From a phage, in sequence record PZ154897.1: a stretch of 64,000 bases of DNA, one strand, 5' to 3'. Numbering within the stretch: the stretch's first letter is position 1; each line of letters begins with the position of its first letter. Of the stretch, positions 1-6,025 are shown one piece after another. Under the pieces are notes generated by a model that had not been told where the DNA came from, did not search any database, and saw only the letters and a program-made list of their open reading frames with translations. The position numbers were made by a program, and so were the translations under genes.

Positions 1-1583
1 TCCTTCAAACCATCTAAAATTTTAGCCACATTTTTAATACCTTCAGCATCAAATGCACCGTCATACACTTCATCAAGAAATAAACAACTTATTTTAACAC
101 CTGAAACTTTTTCAGCAATATCACGCCAAGTAAATAAAAGAGCAATATCAATTCGTGCTTTTTCACCTTGACTAAATGAAGCATAACTAAAATCTTCACG
201 ACCACGGGATTTAATTGTCTCATTAAATTCTTCATCTAATGTAAACACATAATCCGCTTCCATTATTTTAAGATAATGGTTAATCTGCTTATTAAATAAT
301 GGAATGTACTTTTTAATAATAGCACCTTTAATACCAGAATCTTTGAGCATATCAGTCAAAATTCCTCGGTGGTATTTTTCCATTACTAAATTAGTTTTTG
401 TCTTAACAATTTTATCAAGTTCTTCTTGAAGCAGTGCTATTTCATCAGCATGGTCAATAAACTCAGAAGATGCTTTTTCTATAGCCGCTTTAACCTTTTT
501 AGCTTTATCTACCGTCGTGATTAGAGATTGCTTTTTATTGCGAATATCATTTGCCAACGTCTGTTGGGTTTTAATATTATCTCGGTATTCATCAACGAGA
601 ACTTTTAAATTATCACGATGTGTTGAAAGCTGTTCAAACGAATGCGTGCATTCAGAAACTTTATCTTTAATTTTAGAAACAACTTTATCACCGGAACTTA
701 ATTGTGACAAACAGGTTGGACATAATCCACCTTCGTGATACATATTAATGACTTTATTATACGAGTCAATTTTTGATTTAATTAAAAATGCTTCTTGACC
801 GATTTTATTAAATGCATCAGTCGGGTCTTCATCCAAAACAATATTAACTAATCTTTCATTAGCTTCTTCTATTTCCGATTTTAGCGTTCTAGCTTCTTTT
901 GCCAAATCATCATACATATTCTGCAGACGAGTAAGGTTATCACCAGTTAATTTTTTCTGGCGTTCAACGTTATCATTATATATTTTAATTTGTTGGATAA
1001 TACTATCTTTTTTAACATCAAGCACTTGGTTTTGTGAATTTAATTCACGTATTAGTGCTTTATTAAGCTTATCCATTTCAGCTAATGTTCCTACCTCAAG
1101 CAGGTCTTCCACAAGCTTTCTTCGCGCAGGGGTCGACAAACCCATGAAAGGGGTATACCCTGCTGTACCAAGGACAACAATCTGCTTGAAACTGGCATAT
1201 GACATTCCGATAAGCTGTTCAAATTCTGCTTGGAAATCTTTACTGCTGGCAGATTCATTAAGACGTGTACCGTTAACGGTGATTTCGAAAACGTTTGGTT
1301 TTTGTCCTCTTTTGATATAGTACTTTTTCTCATCATATTCCATCCACAGTTCAACTAAAAGTTCTTTCTTATTTGTGCTGTTTATTAATTGACCTTTCTT
1401 TACATCACGGAATGGCTTGCCAAAAAGCCCAAATGTGATGGCTTCTAACATAGTAGACTTACCACCGCCATTTCGTCCAGTAATAAGAGTTTTTTGAACC
1501 TTATCTAATTGAATGTCAACTCCATTTTGACCAACTGACATTATATTTTTATATTTTACTCTATTAAGTTTAAATGATTTCAT
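1..1583 (-). CDS. 46: Recombination endonuclease subunit gp46 (SbcC/Rad50-like ATPase); 3' end cut by window start
   Basis: Manual minus-strand translation from ATG at 1583 gives MKSFKLNRVKYKNIMSVGQNG...GRNGGGKST (Walker A); frame stays open to position 3. Absent from ORF track because it is edge-truncated. Confidence 0.9.
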   Translation of the reverse strand, partial: MKSFKLNRVKYKNIMSVGQNGVDIQLDKVQKTLITGRNGGGKSTMLEAITFGLFGKPFRDVKKGQLINSTNKKELLVELWMEYDEKKYYIKRGQKPNVFEITVNGTRLNESASSKDFQAEFEQLIGMSYASFKQIVVLGTAGYTPFMGLSTPARRKLVEDLLEVGTLAEMDKLNKALIRELNSQNQVLDVKKDSIIQQIKIYNDNVERQKKLTGDNLTRLQNMYDDLAKEARTLKSEIEEANERLVNIVLDEDPTDAFNKIGQEAFLIKSKIDSYNKVINMYHEGGLCPTCLSQLSSGDKVVSKIKDKVSECTHSFEQLSTHRDNLKVLVDEYRDNIKTQQTLANDIRNKKQSLITTVDKAKKVKAAIEKASSEFIDHADEIALLQEELDKIVKTKTNLVMEKYHRGILTDMLKDSGIKGAIIKKYIPLFNKQINHYLKIMEADYVFTLDEEFNETIKSRGREDFSYASFSQGEKARIDIALLFTWRDIAEKVSGVKISCLFLDEVYDGAFDAEGIKNVAKILDGLK

Positions 1584-1598
1584 TTTGTATCCAATTGT

Positions 1599-2453
1599 TC
1601 ACAATGAAGAAAATTCTTTAACTAAAGCCTGTAATGAAGCCTCTATTGGATATCCATTCTTAACTAACATTTTCCTAAACATCACATGTTTAGGACGATT
1701 ATATGATATCCACAATTCATACAATTTATCTTTATTATCCCAATGATAGCCTTTTCGTCGAGATGCTATATGAGCTTTTCTAATCTCCGGATTTTTCCAA
1801 CTAGCAGCTACTGAATTTGATATAGCTATTTTATATTCAGGTTTTGATAAAGCAGCGCGAACAGCCCTTTGGTGTTTAATTTTATTTTCTTCGTTATTAA
1901 ACCATTCCCTTGAAGCCATTGAAATTTTTTGTTTTGTTTTAAAATTATTTAATCTTTCTTTGTTATCTTTTCTATTTTTTGCTACTGAAAAATATTTTAA
2001 TGCCCTTTCTCTAGCAGCATTTCTATTTTGCGGATTTGAATAATACTGTTGAAGCCTTTTTGATATTGTGTCACTTACATCTTGTTTTATAAAACTATAT
2101 TCAGCAGCTATTAAATCAACTTCGGCTAAAGATAAATTTTTATATGTTTTTCCTGACATCATTCTATTTAAAGCATTTAGCATTTTTCCATTTTTACCTT
2201 TTGCTAATAAGAAATGTGCTTTGAAATGATTGAAATGACTTAAATTAACTAAATTCCATGTAGATTTTAAATATTCAGGAAATATTGATTTAGGAAGCAC
2301 GTGATGTGCTTCCGTTTTACCTGGAGTTTTAACAGTTGAATTCATAGAAATAAAATTAATGTAAGACTTGGCGTCTTCTTCGCTCAACACTAATTTTTCA
2401 ACTAATTCCTTTATTAAAAATTCATCATTAATATCAAGTTTAAAATTCTTCAC
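1599..2453 (-). CDS. HNH homing endonuclease, free-standing, with NUMOD-like C-terminal repeats
   Basis: 284 aa; HNH motif AHHVLPKS...NLVNLSHFNHFKAH; basic repeat-rich C-terminus; GTG start preceded by SD AAGGAA; lies between gene 46 and the 46.x/47 genes. Confidence 0.7.
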   Translation of the reverse strand: MKNFKLDINDEFLIKELVEKLVLSEEDAKSYINFISMNSTVKTPGKTEAHHVLPKSIFPEYLKSTWNLVNLSHFNHFKAHFLLAKGKNGKMLNALNRMMSGKTYKNLSLAEVDLIAAEYSFIKQDVSDTISKRLQQYYSNPQNRNAARERALKYFSVAKNRKDNKERLNNFKTKQKISMASREWFNNEENKIKHQRAVRAALSKPEYKIAISNSVAASWKNPEIRKAHIASRRKGYHWDNKDKLYELWISYNRPKHVMFRKMLVKNGYPIEASLQALVKEFSSL

Positions 2454-2656
2454 AAAAGATTCCTTTTAATGTATCTTTTAGACCATTCTATCATATCATC
2501 ATAATCTAAAAAGTATTCATCAAATTCAGCCATGCAAACAACACCTTGTGCTGCTTTTGATGTGATATAAATTATTCCAACATATCTAGAATCTTCTTCG
2601 GTGTAATCAATATTTGCTATGAATTCATCGTTAATGTCAAATGTCGAAAACTTCAC
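2450..2656 (-). CDS. Hypothetical small protein (46.x-like)
   Basis: ORF track 2450..2713; likely true start is GTG at 2656 with SD AAGGA; N-terminus MKFSTFDINDEF resembles the N-terminus of the adjacent HNH ORF. Confidence 0.4.
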   Translation of the reverse strand: MKFSTFDINDEFIANIDYTEEDSRYVGIIYITSKAAQGVVCMAEFDEYFLDYDDMIEWSKRYIKRNLL

Positions 2657-2900
2657 AGTATGCATCCTTAATACAAGATACAGCCATATCTTGTAATGAT
2701 TTAGGTGTGTCATTATCTAAAATGTTGAAGTTAAAAGATACAGCCCAGTCAGTGCAGACCGTGACCTTTTTAATACAATTATCTTCAACCTCTAACGGTT
2801 CAAACCAATATTCAATAATTTCTTTATGCCCAATATCATCTTTTACTTCACATTCAAAATGCTGACTCATCATAACATTTTTAAATTCATCAAAAGTCAT
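2637..2900 (-). CDS. Hypothetical protein, 87 aa
   Basis: ORF track; its ATG overlaps the gene 47 stop (ATGA), suggesting translational coupling. Confidence 0.45.
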   Translation of the reverse strand: MTFDEFKNVMMSQHFECEVKDDIGHKEIIEYWFEPLEVEDNCIKKVTVCTDWAVSFNFNILDNDTPKSLQDMAVSCIKDAYCEVFDI

Positions 2901-3916
2901 TGTGTTGCCTCTACATATAACTGATTTGCATATTGAATAAGTGCTTCGCGATCAGAATCAGTGATGTCTGGAATTGCATTAATGTATTCTTCCATCAACG
3001 TCTGAAGAGATTGAACTTCAACTTCTTCGCTATCATCTGACTCGACAGAGTTATCAATCTTTGACACAACTCGTAATGAATGCACAACTTTTTCTAGTTC
3101 AGATTCGAACTTCGTTAGATTTTTGTCTACCTCAGTTACTATAACACGCACTGATAGATTTGTAAAATCTTTATAGTCAATTTTTCCCTTAAATGGATAC
3201 TGAATTCGACGATGCCAGGTAGTGTTGTTTGGAATAAATTCCATTCGTTCTGTTTCTGTATCAAACATCCAGAACCCGCGAGGGTCATTCTCGTCACCTG
3301 CAGTTAGTGTCCATGGTGTCCCAATATATCTGACGTTAGCAGCCTCAGAGATAGTATGGAAGTGACCAGACCACACCTCTTTATAAGTCTTAAGGAAATC
3401 AGGTTCAAGACCGTGAGATTTCATTCCTTTATAAAAATAAAATCCATTCAACTCCCAGTGACCAACACAAAAAGAAGCAGATGAAGTTTTGATGTGTTCA
3501 AGAATTTCACCAGTATTTTCTTCGCACATCCAAGGAATTAAATCAATCAAACATCCGTCAAAATCTACTGTAGTAGGCTTATCATATACTTTAACATTAG
3601 GATATTTAGCCAAAAGCTCAGTAGAGGCATTTGGATGCATTACATTTTTATAGTGGAGATCGTGATTTCCTACAATAGTATGTAATGTGATTCCAACGTC
3701 ATCAAGCATTTGAACTATTTCGCGAGCAAACTCCATAGTTTTATGCGTGATCGCTTTTCGCACATCAAAAATATCACCATATTGAATCCATACAGTAATT
3801 CCGTTTTTCTTAGAATATTCTATCGCTTGCTTAATTCCATCAATTTGAATACCGCGAATCCACTCATCATCAGCTTTAACGCCTAAATGCCAATCACCTA
3901 AATTTAAAATTTTCAT
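2897..3916 (-). CDS. 47: Recombination endonuclease subunit gp47 (Mre11/SbcD-like phosphoesterase)
   Basis: 339 aa; calcineurin-like motifs GDWHLG, GNHD, GHFH; same length as T4 gp47. Confidence 0.92.
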   Translation of the reverse strand: MKILNLGDWHLGVKADDEWIRGIQIDGIKQAIEYSKKNGITVWIQYGDIFDVRKAITHKTMEFAREIVQMLDDVGITLHTIVGNHDLHYKNVMHPNASTELLAKYPNVKVYDKPTTVDFDGCLIDLIPWMCEENTGEILEHIKTSSASFCVGHWELNGFYFYKGMKSHGLEPDFLKTYKEVWSGHFHTISEAANVRYIGTPWTLTAGDENDPRGFWMFDTETERMEFIPNNTTWHRRIQYPFKGKIDYKDFTNLSVRVIVTEVDKNLTKFESELEKVVHSLRVVSKIDNSVESDDSEEVEVQSLQTLMEEYINAIPDITDSDREALIQYANQLYVEATQ

Positions 3917-4069
3917 ATATCAAGAACCGTCATTGAAATGCAAAATAAAATTATTGAAATAAATCCATCTGGAGTGCTAAAGAACCCAATCCAACATGCT
4001 CTAGTGAATAGATAAAATGCAAGAAAAAGTATCACATATCCAAGAAATATCATTATATCAAACTCCGTA

Positions 4070-4095: not shown

Positions 4096-5295
4096 TTTTG
4101 TAATAATGTCAAACTGTTCTTTAAAGCAGAAGCTTGAATCTTGATGCTGATACAAAAATTCATAAGCTTTTTCACGTTCACGGTCATAAAGAGCTCGGTC
4201 AGATGACAGTTCTTTAATACGTTCAAATGTTGATTCCATGTCATTTTCATCAAACCAAACGATACCGCTATCGTGTGAAATTAATGGAGTATTATCAACA
4301 CGGAATTTTAAATTTTCGCCAGTACATTTCCAAAATACCGGAATTGTTCCACATGCACCAAGCTCGAGATGAGTATATTCTAAAGAACGTTGTAGATATT
4401 TTTTGTCCAACTTACTCAGCTGATAACCAAATCCGGATTTACTCATGCGTTCAAGCATTTCGCTATTTACATAACGGTCGAGAATTTGCGTCGGCAAATT
4501 AGGAGCAATTTTAATTTGGTCTACTTGGTGAAGACGATAATACTCGTATGGAATTCCTTTTTCTTTAATAGGAATGAACGCTGGAGAACGTTCCAGACCT
4601 TCCATAATAGTACTTAGTCCTGCAGGTTTAAGATGTTTTTCATGAAAATCAAACATCTGATAAAAACCTTTCCATGTAGTCGTACGACCAATCCAACGGT
4701 TGATATTCATGTTAATTTCAGAAACATCTTTCCAGTAGGTTGACCGAACCTTCGCAATATCCATAGGAGGCTGAAAGTTATATACTGCCGGTGCTTCTTC
4801 AATATCATCAAACAGAGAAACTGTTTCAGGATACCATTCTTTCATCAGAACTTTATTAAAATCACCATTATCAGAATGGCTAAAAATAACATCAGCTCGA
4901 CGAACAGTTTCTTCTAATCCCAAATTTCGGCGCAAAGAAAGAGAAGAATGGTCATGTTGATAAACTACAACACGAACAGAAGGTTTAATGTTATCAATAA
5001 TTTTTTTATAGTTATTAATAGTGTCTTCTTCAACCGAAGTAGCAGGAACTGAATTGATAATTAGAATATCACAATCATTTACCAGCTTAAGTGTTTTATC
5101 GTATTCTTTTGCCAATAAAACTGGAATTGAAAATGATTTATAATCATGCGCGCAATTACGAGTAAATGATTTATCTTTAGCATAAACCAAAGTCACTTCA
5201 TGACCATTTTTAATAAACCAATCACGTTGCTCGAGTGAGAATTTTGTTACACCACAACCTTCAAGACCTCGAGCCATAAAAATACATACTTTCAT
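4093..5295 (-). CDS. a-gt: DNA alpha-glucosyltransferase
   Basis: 400 aa, N-terminus MKVCIFMARGLEGCGVTKFSLEQRDWFIKNGHEV; length and position as T4 a-gt. Confidence 0.88.
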   Translation of the reverse strand: MKVCIFMARGLEGCGVTKFSLEQRDWFIKNGHEVTLVYAKDKSFTRNCAHDYKSFSIPVLLAKEYDKTLKLVNDCDILIINSVPATSVEEDTINNYKKIIDNIKPSVRVVVYQHDHSSLSLRRNLGLEETVRRADVIFSHSDNGDFNKVLMKEWYPETVSLFDDIEEAPAVYNFQPPMDIAKVRSTYWKDVSEINMNINRWIGRTTTWKGFYQMFDFHEKHLKPAGLSTIMEGLERSPAFIPIKEKGIPYEYYRLHQVDQIKIAPNLPTQILDRYVNSEMLERMSKSGFGYQLSKLDKKYLQRSLEYTHLELGACGTIPVFWKCTGENLKFRVDNTPLISHDSGIVWFDENDMESTFERIKELSSDRALYDREREKAYEFLYQHQDSSFCFKEQFDIITK

Positions 5296-5361
5296 TTAAT
5301 ATCCTCTTTGTTTTGGTTTATTTTACCAAAAATTTATAAAGCAATATAGGAGCCGAAGCTC

Positions 5362-5532
5362 CTATCCACATAATACGTCATACAGAGGCTCATTTGAACT
5401 TTTAAATCGAATGGGCTTGTACGTAATAGTTCCTTCGGCTTTAGCTTTATCATAAGACTCTTTAAAACGTCTCATTCTTTCTGCTTTGCCTTTACGGATT
5501 TTATCGAAATTTTCAGAAGTCTGGGTGTTCAT
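5362..5532 (-). CDS. Hypothetical small basic protein, about 56 aa, below ORF-track threshold
   Basis: Manual translation MNTQTSENFDKIRKGKAERMRRFKESYDKAKAEGTITYKPIRFKSSNEPLYDVLCG; ATG at 5532; followed by hairpin 5347-5364. Confidence 0.3.
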   Translation of the reverse strand: MNTQTSENFDKIRKGKAERMRRFKESYDKAKAEGTITYKPIRFKSSNEPLYDVLCG

Positions 5533-5535
5533 CTT

Positions 5536-5742
5536 TCACAGTTGCCACCATTTTTTGACTTGATAAGAATCAACCCACACTTTCATATTAGGGTCTGCTC
5601 TTACAATAGGAGGATTAACTTCTTTAATTGAACTATCATGGTATTCTTTTTCAGAAATTTTCACACAAAGATGACCGTTCAAAGATTCAGTAAATCCTGC
5701 ATTAATTTTAAGACGCTTGAATTTTACGTGTGTAAGCATCAA
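5536..5742 (-). CDS. Hypothetical protein, 68 aa
   Basis: ORF track; same strand, tightly packed with neighbours. Confidence 0.4.
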   Translation of the reverse strand: MMLTHVKFKRLKINAGFTESLNGHLCVKISEKEYHDSSIKEVNPPIVRADPNMKVWVDSYQVKKWWQL

Positions 5743-6025
5743 TCATATCCTCAATCTGCGATCTAGTAGTCTTCCAAAGAATACTAATGAGTTCATCGTT
5801 ATATGGCTGTTTTAGAATATCCCGACTTTTCTTGATAGCATATTCGTATTGAGCAAAATTATTGTTTTCGGCTGCAATCTGAGCATGTTTATAAAGACGG
5901 TTCAGTTCGCGTTTATTTTTAGACAATAACTTATTTGCTTTTCTTTCTGCTTCAAGACGGTTCTTTTCTTCAATAGAAGAAATAAGCTTTTCAACTTCAT
6001 CATTAATTTCGGATTTATCAGTCAT
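5708..6025 (-). CDS. Hypothetical protein, 105 aa
   Basis: ORF track; charged, helical-looking sequence. Confidence 0.5.
   Translation of the reverse strand: MTDKSEINDEVEKLISSIEEKNRLEAERKANKLLSKNKRELNRLYKHAQIAAENNNFAQYEYAIKKSRDILKQPYNDELISILWKTTRSQIEDMIDAYTRKIQAS

Follow-up and report, generated by a model that had tools for sequence, protein, structure and literature searches.

Gene order and paired starts at the gene 46 locus

We analysed a 64,000-nucleotide (nt) stretch of phage DNA from sequence record PZ154897.1, hereafter the window, and focused on an open reading frame (ORF) of 284 amino acids (aa) for a predicted HNH homing endonuclease, which lies between genes 46.1 and 46. In this region Escherichia phages N2 and BYEP01 are 100% identical to the window, and T2, T6, RB51, RB68 and PP01 are 98-99% identical, indicating that the window belongs to a Tequatrovirus of the T2/T6 type. 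All genes here lie on the minus strand, in the transcription order 47, 46.2, 46.1, the 284-aa ORF (HNH below) and 46:

2897-3916, minus strand: gene 47
2637-2900, minus strand: gene 46.2 (Pfam T4_Y03C)
2450-2656, minus strand: gene 46.1, 68 aa, intact, GTG start at 2656, near-identical to T4 46.1
1599-2453, minus strand: HNH ORF, 284 aa, intact, predicted free-standing Mob-type; its GTG overlaps the 46.1 stop as GTGA
1-1583, minus strand: gene 46, SbcC/Rad50-like recombination nuclease subunit, ATG at 1583, continuing past the window edge

The 46.1 protein matched Pfam PF17589 (DUF5487) over residues 1-66 of 66 (E 2e-49, 165.9 bits against a cut-off of 27), which confirms its GTG start, and it also matched PHROG 2327 (E 1e-39). 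Its N-terminal peptide is MKFSTFDINDEF, with AAGGA 8 nt upstream of the GTG. HNH starts with GTG AAG, has the N-terminal peptide MKNFKLDINDEF and carries AAGGAA 6 nt upstream (2460-2465). Both starts had been described in this way in a first-pass annotation of the sequence, together with about 42 nt of roughly 70% identity between them, and these descriptions were borne out. Aligned in register from the two GTGs, HNH and 46.1 were identical at 27 of 36 and 30 of 42 nt (71% for the latter). Identity upstream of the start codon was 7 of 20, and there was no match beyond codon 12.

The endonuclease gene takes over the start of gene 46

Comparison with T4, which has no endonuclease at this position, defined both insertion boundaries to the base, as the first-pass annotation had anticipated for a T4-like phage of this kind. 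In T4, the 46.1 stop overlaps the gene 46 start (...AAAAGGAATCTTTTGTGAAGAATTTTAAACTTAATAGAGTAAAATAT...), and ...AAAAGGAATCTTTTGTGAAGAATTTTAAACTT runs straight into gene 46 (AATAGAGTAAAATAT...); in the window, the same 18 nt run into HNH. The order in the window is ...GTGAAGAATTTTAAACTT, then GATATTAATGATGAATTT into HNH, and, past the HNH stop, ACAATTGGATACAAA, ATGAAATCATTTAAACTT and AATAGAGTAAAATAT. Since T4 continues the same 18 nt into gene 46, the start region was taken over in place and was not duplicated from 46.1. The parts of the insertion, all on the minus strand, are as follows:

2460..2465: AAGGAA Shine-Dalgarno sequence within the 3' end of 46.1, also found upstream of gene 46 in T4
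2436..2453: HNH nt 1-18 (GTGAAGAATTTTAAACTT, MKNFKL), identical to the start of gene 46 in T4, with unbroken contiguity across the upstream flank
2436..2444: left direct repeat TTTAAACTT (9 bp), the old copy of gene 46 nt 10-18
1566..2435: endonuclease cassette, 870 bp, absent from T4 in pairwise alignment
1584..1598: new spacer ACAATTGGATACAAA, 15 nt from the HNH stop to the new gene 46 ATG, absent from T4
1566..1574: right direct repeat TTTAAACTT (9 bp), the new copy of gene 46 nt 10-18

The replacement gene 46 start is composed of the 15-nt spacer, ATG AAA TCA and then the repeated TTTAAACTT. Gene 46 in the window accordingly opens with ATGAAATCA (MKSFKL), replacing GTGAAGAAT (MKNFKL), and the spacer ACAATTGGATACAAA is homologous to a stretch upstream of gene 46 in phage Melville (ACAGACGGATATTAAATGAAA). 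The duplicated element is the gene 46 start, present as MKNFKL on HNH and as MKSFKL on gene 46 and flanked by TTTAAACTT. Removal of the sequence between the two TTTAAACTT copies gives the exact T4 junction.

The same arrangement was found among related phage records, 446 of which had the uninterrupted site and 72 the HNH gene, with flanks 95-100% identical; in all 72 HNH-carrying records the match to the T4 empty-site query was exact as far as nt 18 of gene 46. We conclude with high confidence that the insert lies 18 nt inside gene 46, that HNH uses the gene 46 Shine-Dalgarno sequence, GTG and first six codons (MKNFKL), and that the cassette supplies gene 46 with a substitute start. This reading of the architecture takes gene 46 of HNH-free Tequatrovirus to start with GTGAAGAATTTTAAACT. 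The AAGGAA at 2460..2465 is, from its position, the predicted ribosome-binding site originally of gene 46 and now of HNH.

The first-pass annotation had proposed another source, namely that insertion of HNH duplicated or captured the initiation region and first ~14 codons of 46.1, with the 46.1 start as the homing site. The paired GTG-AAG starts behind AAGGA, the common DINDEF peptide (codons 7-12 of both genes) and the 30 of 42 identical nt are what this explanation accounts for, and in Mosigvirus the first 7 codons of a sister HNH are indeed those of the resident 46.1. It is contradicted by the empty-site alignment: the Shine-Dalgarno sequence, GTG and 18 nt of HNH are those of an undisturbed gene 46 start in T4 and in 445 other empty sites. 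The low identity upstream of the two starts also speaks against it, as do codons 3-6, which read NFKL in HNH against FSTF in 46.1 and match gene 46, and a cluster of substitutions that lies beside the insert in gene 46 with none on the 46.1 side. We therefore consider a 46.1 source for the whole start very unlikely. What stands of the earlier interpretation is that a mobile HNH gene, present in some records and absent from others, took its start from a host initiation sequence; the source was the downstream gene 46, and it was occupied in place and not copied.

A transposon-style target-site duplication was also considered for the 9-bp repeat and rejected, the right TTTAAACTT copy being ordinary gene 46 nt 10-18. 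TTTAAACTT also adjoins the sister HNH in Melville, and a variant of it, TTTAAATTA, does so in AV113. The repeat thus represents two homologous gene 46 starts and not the product of a staggered cut.

Sister endonucleases and exchange of 5' ends at this locus

The closest homologues of HNH, with 42-45% identity over the whole body, were found in Mosigvirus (AV113, F2, phiEC1 and others, 10 records) and Gelderlandvirus (Melville, SEA1 and others). As in the window, these sister genes adjoin gene 46 directly upstream, and the variant of gene 46 nt ~31-60 to which they are linked is the one found in the window. They differ in how they are joined to their neighbours. In AV113, HNH takes the place of 46.1 and opens with the first 7 codons of that gene, the Melville HNH directly follows gene 47, and the 3' ends of both overlap the gene 46 start; in the window, by contrast, 46.1 is intact, HNH starts with gene 46 codons and its stop lies 15 nt before gene 46. 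About 11 nt near the 3' end of the window HNH (1599-1625, TTCTTCATTGT region) have no counterpart in AV113 and Melville; they give an earlier stop, and the ORF consequently no longer overlaps the gene 46 start.

The first 22 nt (MTKTDYE) are shared between the AV113 HNH and RB69 46.1, and divergence after them is complete. In RB69, MTKTDYE is a 7-residue N-terminal extension of 46.1 (924-945 of the RB69 stretch) that is absent from 46.1 of T4, DK-13 and S16; its nucleotides are identical at the AV113 HNH start (2423-2444 of the AV113 stretch), and Melville has IDAET aligned there. Because 46.1 of T4, DK-13 and S16 lacks the extension and the Melville HNH has IDAET, the transfer in Mosigvirus could have run from 46.1 to HNH or in the reverse direction.

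A further exchange was found in Salmonella phage STML-198, which lacks 46.1. Its gene 46 start, GTGAAAACATTTAAG (742), is a hybrid of the S16 46.1 start (GTGAAA..., S16 742-948) and the S16 gene 46 start (ATGAAAACATTTAAG, ATGAAA), indicating a clean deletion of 46.1 by recombination between two start codons.

At the other end of the gene, the C-terminal tails of the sister HNHs (EFMRKNLSENI and EFDRRILNENF; 3230-3283 of both the AV113 and the Melville stretch) resemble 46.1 C-termini (RYIKRNLL, DFIRREYI). This likeness may be a retained 46.1 3' end, or the imprint of the AGGA ribosome site of gene 46 that is embedded there. Another gene annotated 'putative homing endonuclease' lies just past the 3' end of gene 46 in DK-13, on the opposite strand (3667-3978), and gene 46 thus seems to attract endonuclease genes at both ends.

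A probable homing site in the 5' end of gene 46

The flanks of the insertion were compared among the window, T2, T4 and HNH-free AR1. To the right of the insert, 12-13 of the first 50 nt differed between HNH carriers and HNH-free phages (13 of 50 for AR1 versus the window). Beyond these 50 nt, AR1 and the window had about 0-2 mismatches per 50 nt, and no cluster was found in the left flank or 46.1. The variant region is:

1518..1574, minus strand: cassette-linked gene 46 allele, nt 10-66, with diagnostic nt 34, 51, 55 and 56 (window 1528-1550)

Across Tequatrovirus, Mosigvirus and Gelderlandvirus, gene 46 nt 10-66 groups by HNH status and not by genus. The window and Melville were 82% identical over nt 10-66 and 71% over nt 67-460; Melville and its congener S16 were 56% identical over the first of these segments and 96% over the second, and AV113 and RB69 79% and 99%. 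Positions 34, 51, 55 and 56 separated all HNH-linked from all HNH-free alleles compared (AR1, RB69, S16, STML-198), a set that covers the three genera having a carrier and does not include HNH-free DK-13 (Gaprivervirus), which has the linked state at nt 34 and 51. At the protein level, the diagnostic substitutions replace Q12 by K or S and G19 by Q. From these patterns, the recognition or cleavage site for homing is probably within nt ~19-66 of gene 46, a stretch that closely precedes the Walker A motif, and carriers probably hold a protected form of it. The suggestion of the first-pass annotation that the start may mark the homing site thus holds in that the junction is the insertion site; the probable target itself is in gene 46, and 46.1 is free of the substitution cluster.

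A 72-nt query with the T4 allele matched 145 records, comprising the 72 with HNH, which matched from nt 10, and 73 without HNH (T4 included), which matched from nt 1; the remaining ~373 Tequatrovirus records had another gene 46 allele. The alleles read TATCAAAATATAATGTCAGTAGGTGGAAAT in the AR1/RB type, TATAAAAATATAATGTCAGTTGGTCAAAAT in T4/T2 and RYQNIMSVGGNPID in the common HNH-free type. In the HNH-free records with the variant allele, the cassette could have been deleted across the TTTAAACTT repeat, or the allele alone could have been gained by gene conversion. The T4 junction fits equally with deletion across TTTAAACTT and with pairing of a broken left end at TTTAAACT followed by copying of the allele only.

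HNH copies in T2, SV76, RB51, RB68 and MLP2 are frameshifted and appear to be decaying; the window copy is intact, as are those of N2 and T6. In T2, the copy (2001-2853 of the T2 stretch) is split by the frameshift and annotated as a 204-aa 'homing endonuclease' and an 85-aa hypothetical ORF. Homing endonuclease genes pass through a cycle of gain, decay and loss (the Goddard-Burt cycle), which the decayed copies and the HNH-free genomes with the variant allele fit. With intact, frameshifted, lost-with-allele-kept and naive forms all known, every stage of this cycle is recorded at the locus.

The likeness between the HNH and 46.1 starts has two components

The likeness between the HNH and 46.1 starts was compared with chance expectation in 4950 pairs of N-termini, taken from 46.1 and the window's 99 largest non-overlapping ORFs. 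Six identical residues in a row and in register occurred in the HNH and 46.1 pair alone, with no more than 3 in any other pair, and HNH and 46.1 shared 7 identities in residues 2-12 against 5 in the next best pair. Chance alone is therefore an inadequate explanation of the match. The likeness consists of two components of different origin, codons 1-6 and the DINDEF block.

The first component is unrelated to the insertion. In T4, without the endonuclease, the 46.1 and gene 46 starts are already alike at 11 of 18 nt, and the GTGAAG, the layout of Shine-Dalgarno sequence and start, and the general shape of codons 1-6 are this native likeness between 46.1 and gene 46. The second component comprises the following segments:

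2418..2435, minus strand: HNH codons 7-12, GATATTAATGATGAATTT (DINDEF), nt 19-36, the first stretch of the insert
2621..2638, minus strand: 46.1 codons 7-12, GACATTAACGATGAATTC (DINDEF), a native segment of the 46.1 family

Over codons 7-12, HNH was identical to window 46.1 at 15 of 18 nt and to T4 46.1 at 16 of 18. In an alignment of four genera, this segment of 46.1 was variable, reading DINDEF in Tequatrovirus, NLDDEF in DK-13, SIGDGY in RB69 and NLGNGW in S16, and HNH matches the form specific to Tequatrovirus. The earlier interpretation of the start is partly supported in this respect: DINDEF alone points to 46.1, through what would be a separate event.

We also considered and rejected 46.1 as a decayed remnant of HNH. 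BLASTP aligned residues 1-39 alone (E 0.001, in a single comparison), leaving this idea unsupported; past residue 12, the HNH side of that alignment consists of residues conserved in the HNH family (SEEDAKSYINFI versus SWEGLDEYLNFI).

The 284-aa ORF encodes a predicted Mob-type HNH endonuclease

The HNH protein matched PHROG 655 'homing endonuclease' (E 8e-45) and PHROG 12434 'HNH endonuclease' (E 6e-16). In tblastn searches it matched genes annotated mobC (36.5% identity, E 3e-22), mobD (29.6%, E 4e-11) and mobE (28.1%, E 4e-7); the mobD-annotated matches include T4 itself. Residues H50, H51, N67, N75, H76 and H80 were invariant in an alignment of the three HNH clades, and all but N75 were also invariant against MobC-like proteins, with which the HNH protein has the GKTEAHHVLPKSIFPEY motif in common. 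These residues are candidates for an HNH catalytic motif (His-His ... Asn ... His) in the N-terminal half. Taken together, the sequence comparisons identify the ORF as a T4 Mob-type free-standing homing endonuclease, predicted to be of the HNH class, with predicted cleavage activity. Pfam HNH models gave no match to the protein even at E 10, and NCBIfam gave none. An AlphaFold2 model was of low confidence (mean predicted local distance difference test score, pLDDT, of 53); its core strands (48-52 and 68-72) and helix (73-85) fit a beta-beta-alpha-metal topology. A Foldseek search of this pLDDT-53 model against the Protein Data Bank (PDB) returned nothing below E 0.06, and a PDB sequence search returned nothing.

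Residues 1 to ~26-30 of the HNH protein occur at this locus alone, other Mob homologues aligning from residue 27-47. Towards the C-terminus there are three similar NP/NE-x-x-R/K stretches (YYSNPQNRNAA, WFNNEENKIKH and SWKNPEIRKAH), which may be NUMOD-type DNA-binding repeats; the sole NUMOD matches in Pfam were sub-threshold and fell on the MobC-like protein P0003, with none on HNH. A word-indexed protein search for closer relatives had only five matches, made up of MobC-like proteins, the protein itself and a truncated copy of it in RB68. No relative emerged from two IMG/VR scans, and a metagenome scan found 17 distant relatives with unrelated N-termini. Many GenBank records already label this gene 'homing endonuclease', and a literature search found no description of this endonuclease or of a homing site in gene 46.

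In T4, mobB lies next to a-gt (4886-5501 of the T4 stretch, cut at its end). At the counterpart of this place in the window (5296-6025) there are small ORFs of 56, 68 and 105 aa alone, and mobB thus seems to be absent from this phage.

Expression signals around the inserted gene

The coupled GTGA position behind 46.1, held by gene 46 in T4, is here taken by HNH. Because its GTG overlaps the 46.1 stop in this way, translation of HNH is probably coupled to that of 46.1, an arrangement that gene 46 has in T4. Gene 46 now lies behind the 15-nt spacer, which has a weak GGA, and starts with ATG. In T4, mobE has a start/stop overlap that suggests translational coupling, and overlaps also occur for segC, segF, mobA and mobC (PMC2988022). 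In the region, promoter-like sites were at chance level, no T4 late promoter motif was found and no terminator signal exceeded chance.

A further possibility is that the shared 5' coding sequence is no historical relic and is kept by selection, as an RNA signal for translational control or as an N-terminal peptide signal. Such a role would be in keeping with free-standing T4 endonucleases, which are often translationally regulated through their initiation regions (PMC2988022). Against it, no stable RNA structure was found at either the HNH or the 46.1 start (z -0.19 and +0.03 against shuffled sequences), the copies differ at synonymous third positions (GAT/GAC, AAT/AAC, TTT/TTC), phage SYGD1 has DINNEF, and the sister HNHs of other genera are without the motif. 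A functional role for the shared sequence is accordingly highly improbable.

A strong hairpin was observed within the HNH ORF at 2293-2313 on the minus strand (GGAAGCAC-ATCAC-GTGCTTCC, -13.6 kcal/mol, z = -5.2 against shuffles). It coincides with the codons of the predicted catalytic TEAHHVLP motif; its terminator-like score is on the plus strand, and no U-run follows it on the coding strand. Terminator hairpins occur in the 5' coding region of mobE and segF (PMC2988022).

Proposed history of the insertion

The best overall explanation, in which we are fairly confident, combines takeover of the gene 46 start by the cassette, a linked protected allele of gene 46 and a two-step origin of DINDEF. 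In a mixed infection, the enzyme would cut the common allele (RYQNIMSVGGNPID type) of an HNH-free phage, and repair would copy the cassette into it. The variant gene 46 allele would travel with the HNH lineage as a cleavage-resistant form of the homing site.

For DINDEF, we lean slightly towards a relic of an earlier fusion, followed by a start-to-start crossover. In the putative ancestor, the HNH ORF would have been fused to the first 12 codons of a 46.1 of the Tequatrovirus type, the rest of 46.1 being replaced, as in AV113. The postulated intermediate would carry 46.2, then 46.1 codons 1-12 fused to HNH (TTAATAAAGGAATTAG), then gene 46. A later illegitimate crossover between the 46.1 start of this donor and the gene 46 start of a recipient would have placed HNH behind an intact 46.1. 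The resulting ORF would be a mosaic of gene 46 codons 1-6, 46.1 codons 7-12 and the endonuclease body.

Several points weigh against this account. The fused intermediate was not found in 50,697 phage records, IMG/VR or the metagenome scan, and the proposed crossover has only 1-2 nt (TT) of microhomology at its breakpoint. The three HNH clades align weakly as x-D-x-E-[T/F] at NDEF, where MobC-like proteins have CDF, and part of DINDEF could therefore be native to HNH. The catalytic fold could not be confirmed independently by Pfam, NCBIfam, the PDB or the structural model, and we infer cleavage, its target and the protection of the variant allele against it from comparative patterns alone.

The absence of a recorded intermediate and the alignment of the HNH clades also bear on a rival possibility, that DINDEF is the N-terminus of HNH itself and resembles 46.1 only by chance. 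The sole recombination footprint would then be the occupied gene 46 start. The match covers six residues of common amino acids in an AT-rich genome, and the aligned TDYET (AV113), IDAET (Melville) and CDF (MobC-like proteins) allow E11 and F12 to be ancestral to HNH. Coincidence would nevertheless have to account for an in-register run of six with the adjoining gene, twice the length reached by any other of the 4950 pairs, and for a match to the Tequatrovirus-specific form of a variable segment. HNH and 46.1 demonstrably exchange 5' ends at this locus, in AV113 and STML-198, and the TDYE of AV113, being nucleotide-identical to RB69 46.1, is no independent evidence for a motif native to HNH. 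We regard coincidence as unlikely, while giving it appreciable weight.

More tentatively, the start codons of the three adjacent genes 46.1, HNH and 46 (alike in [A/G]TGAA[A/G] behind AGGA) might act as recombination joints, through which the cassette would swap 5' ends, replace or spare the host gene and leave cleanly; we put this forward as a possibility to which we do not yet incline.

Comparison with known systems and significance

T4 MobC and MobD are the nearest named homologues of HNH. Unlike HNH, they are located at nrdG/nrdD and nrdC.11, and their first ~30 residues are unrelated. SegF and SegG, two further T4 endonucleases, are GIY-YIG enzymes with mapped cleavage sites, and cleavage by the gene 46 HNH is a prediction. 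The locus is otherwise like SegF/gene 56 and SegG/gene 32, which are known from T4 x T2 marker exclusion, in having a substitution cluster in the adjoining essential gene and co-conversion of the flank (PMC2988022). It also resembles T4 MobE, which belongs to the same family, is free-standing between conserved genes (nrdA/nrdB) and has a start overlapping the upstream stop (PMC2988022); MobE is reported to mobilise itself plus flanking DNA (PMC2790892). MobE is intergenic and shares no codons with its neighbour; in HNH, by contrast, the first six codons are those of the target gene, which receives a replacement start in return.

The Mob-type class is known, and the general picture of homing endonucleases is unchanged by this case, which adds a clean, uncharacterised example. 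What is less usual is the presence of target-gene codons at the start of the ORF, the substitute start and the 5' end that is a mosaic of two genes. The locus shows, to the base, how an overlapping, coupled operon can accommodate a selfish endonuclease gene by way of a borrowed ribosome site and borrowed codons, and it names a concrete predicted homing site in the essential recombination gene 46 (nt ~31-60). If start codons do act as joints, this would offer a general route by which free-standing endonucleases enter packed, coupled operons without breaking them. A corollary of this tentative model would be that the 5' end of T4 gene 46 is an endonuclease-derived protected allele, and that an ancestor of T4 once met or carried the endonuclease. 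Independently of it, the comparison suggests that T4, the laboratory reference, has at its gene 46 start the allele linked to the HNH element.

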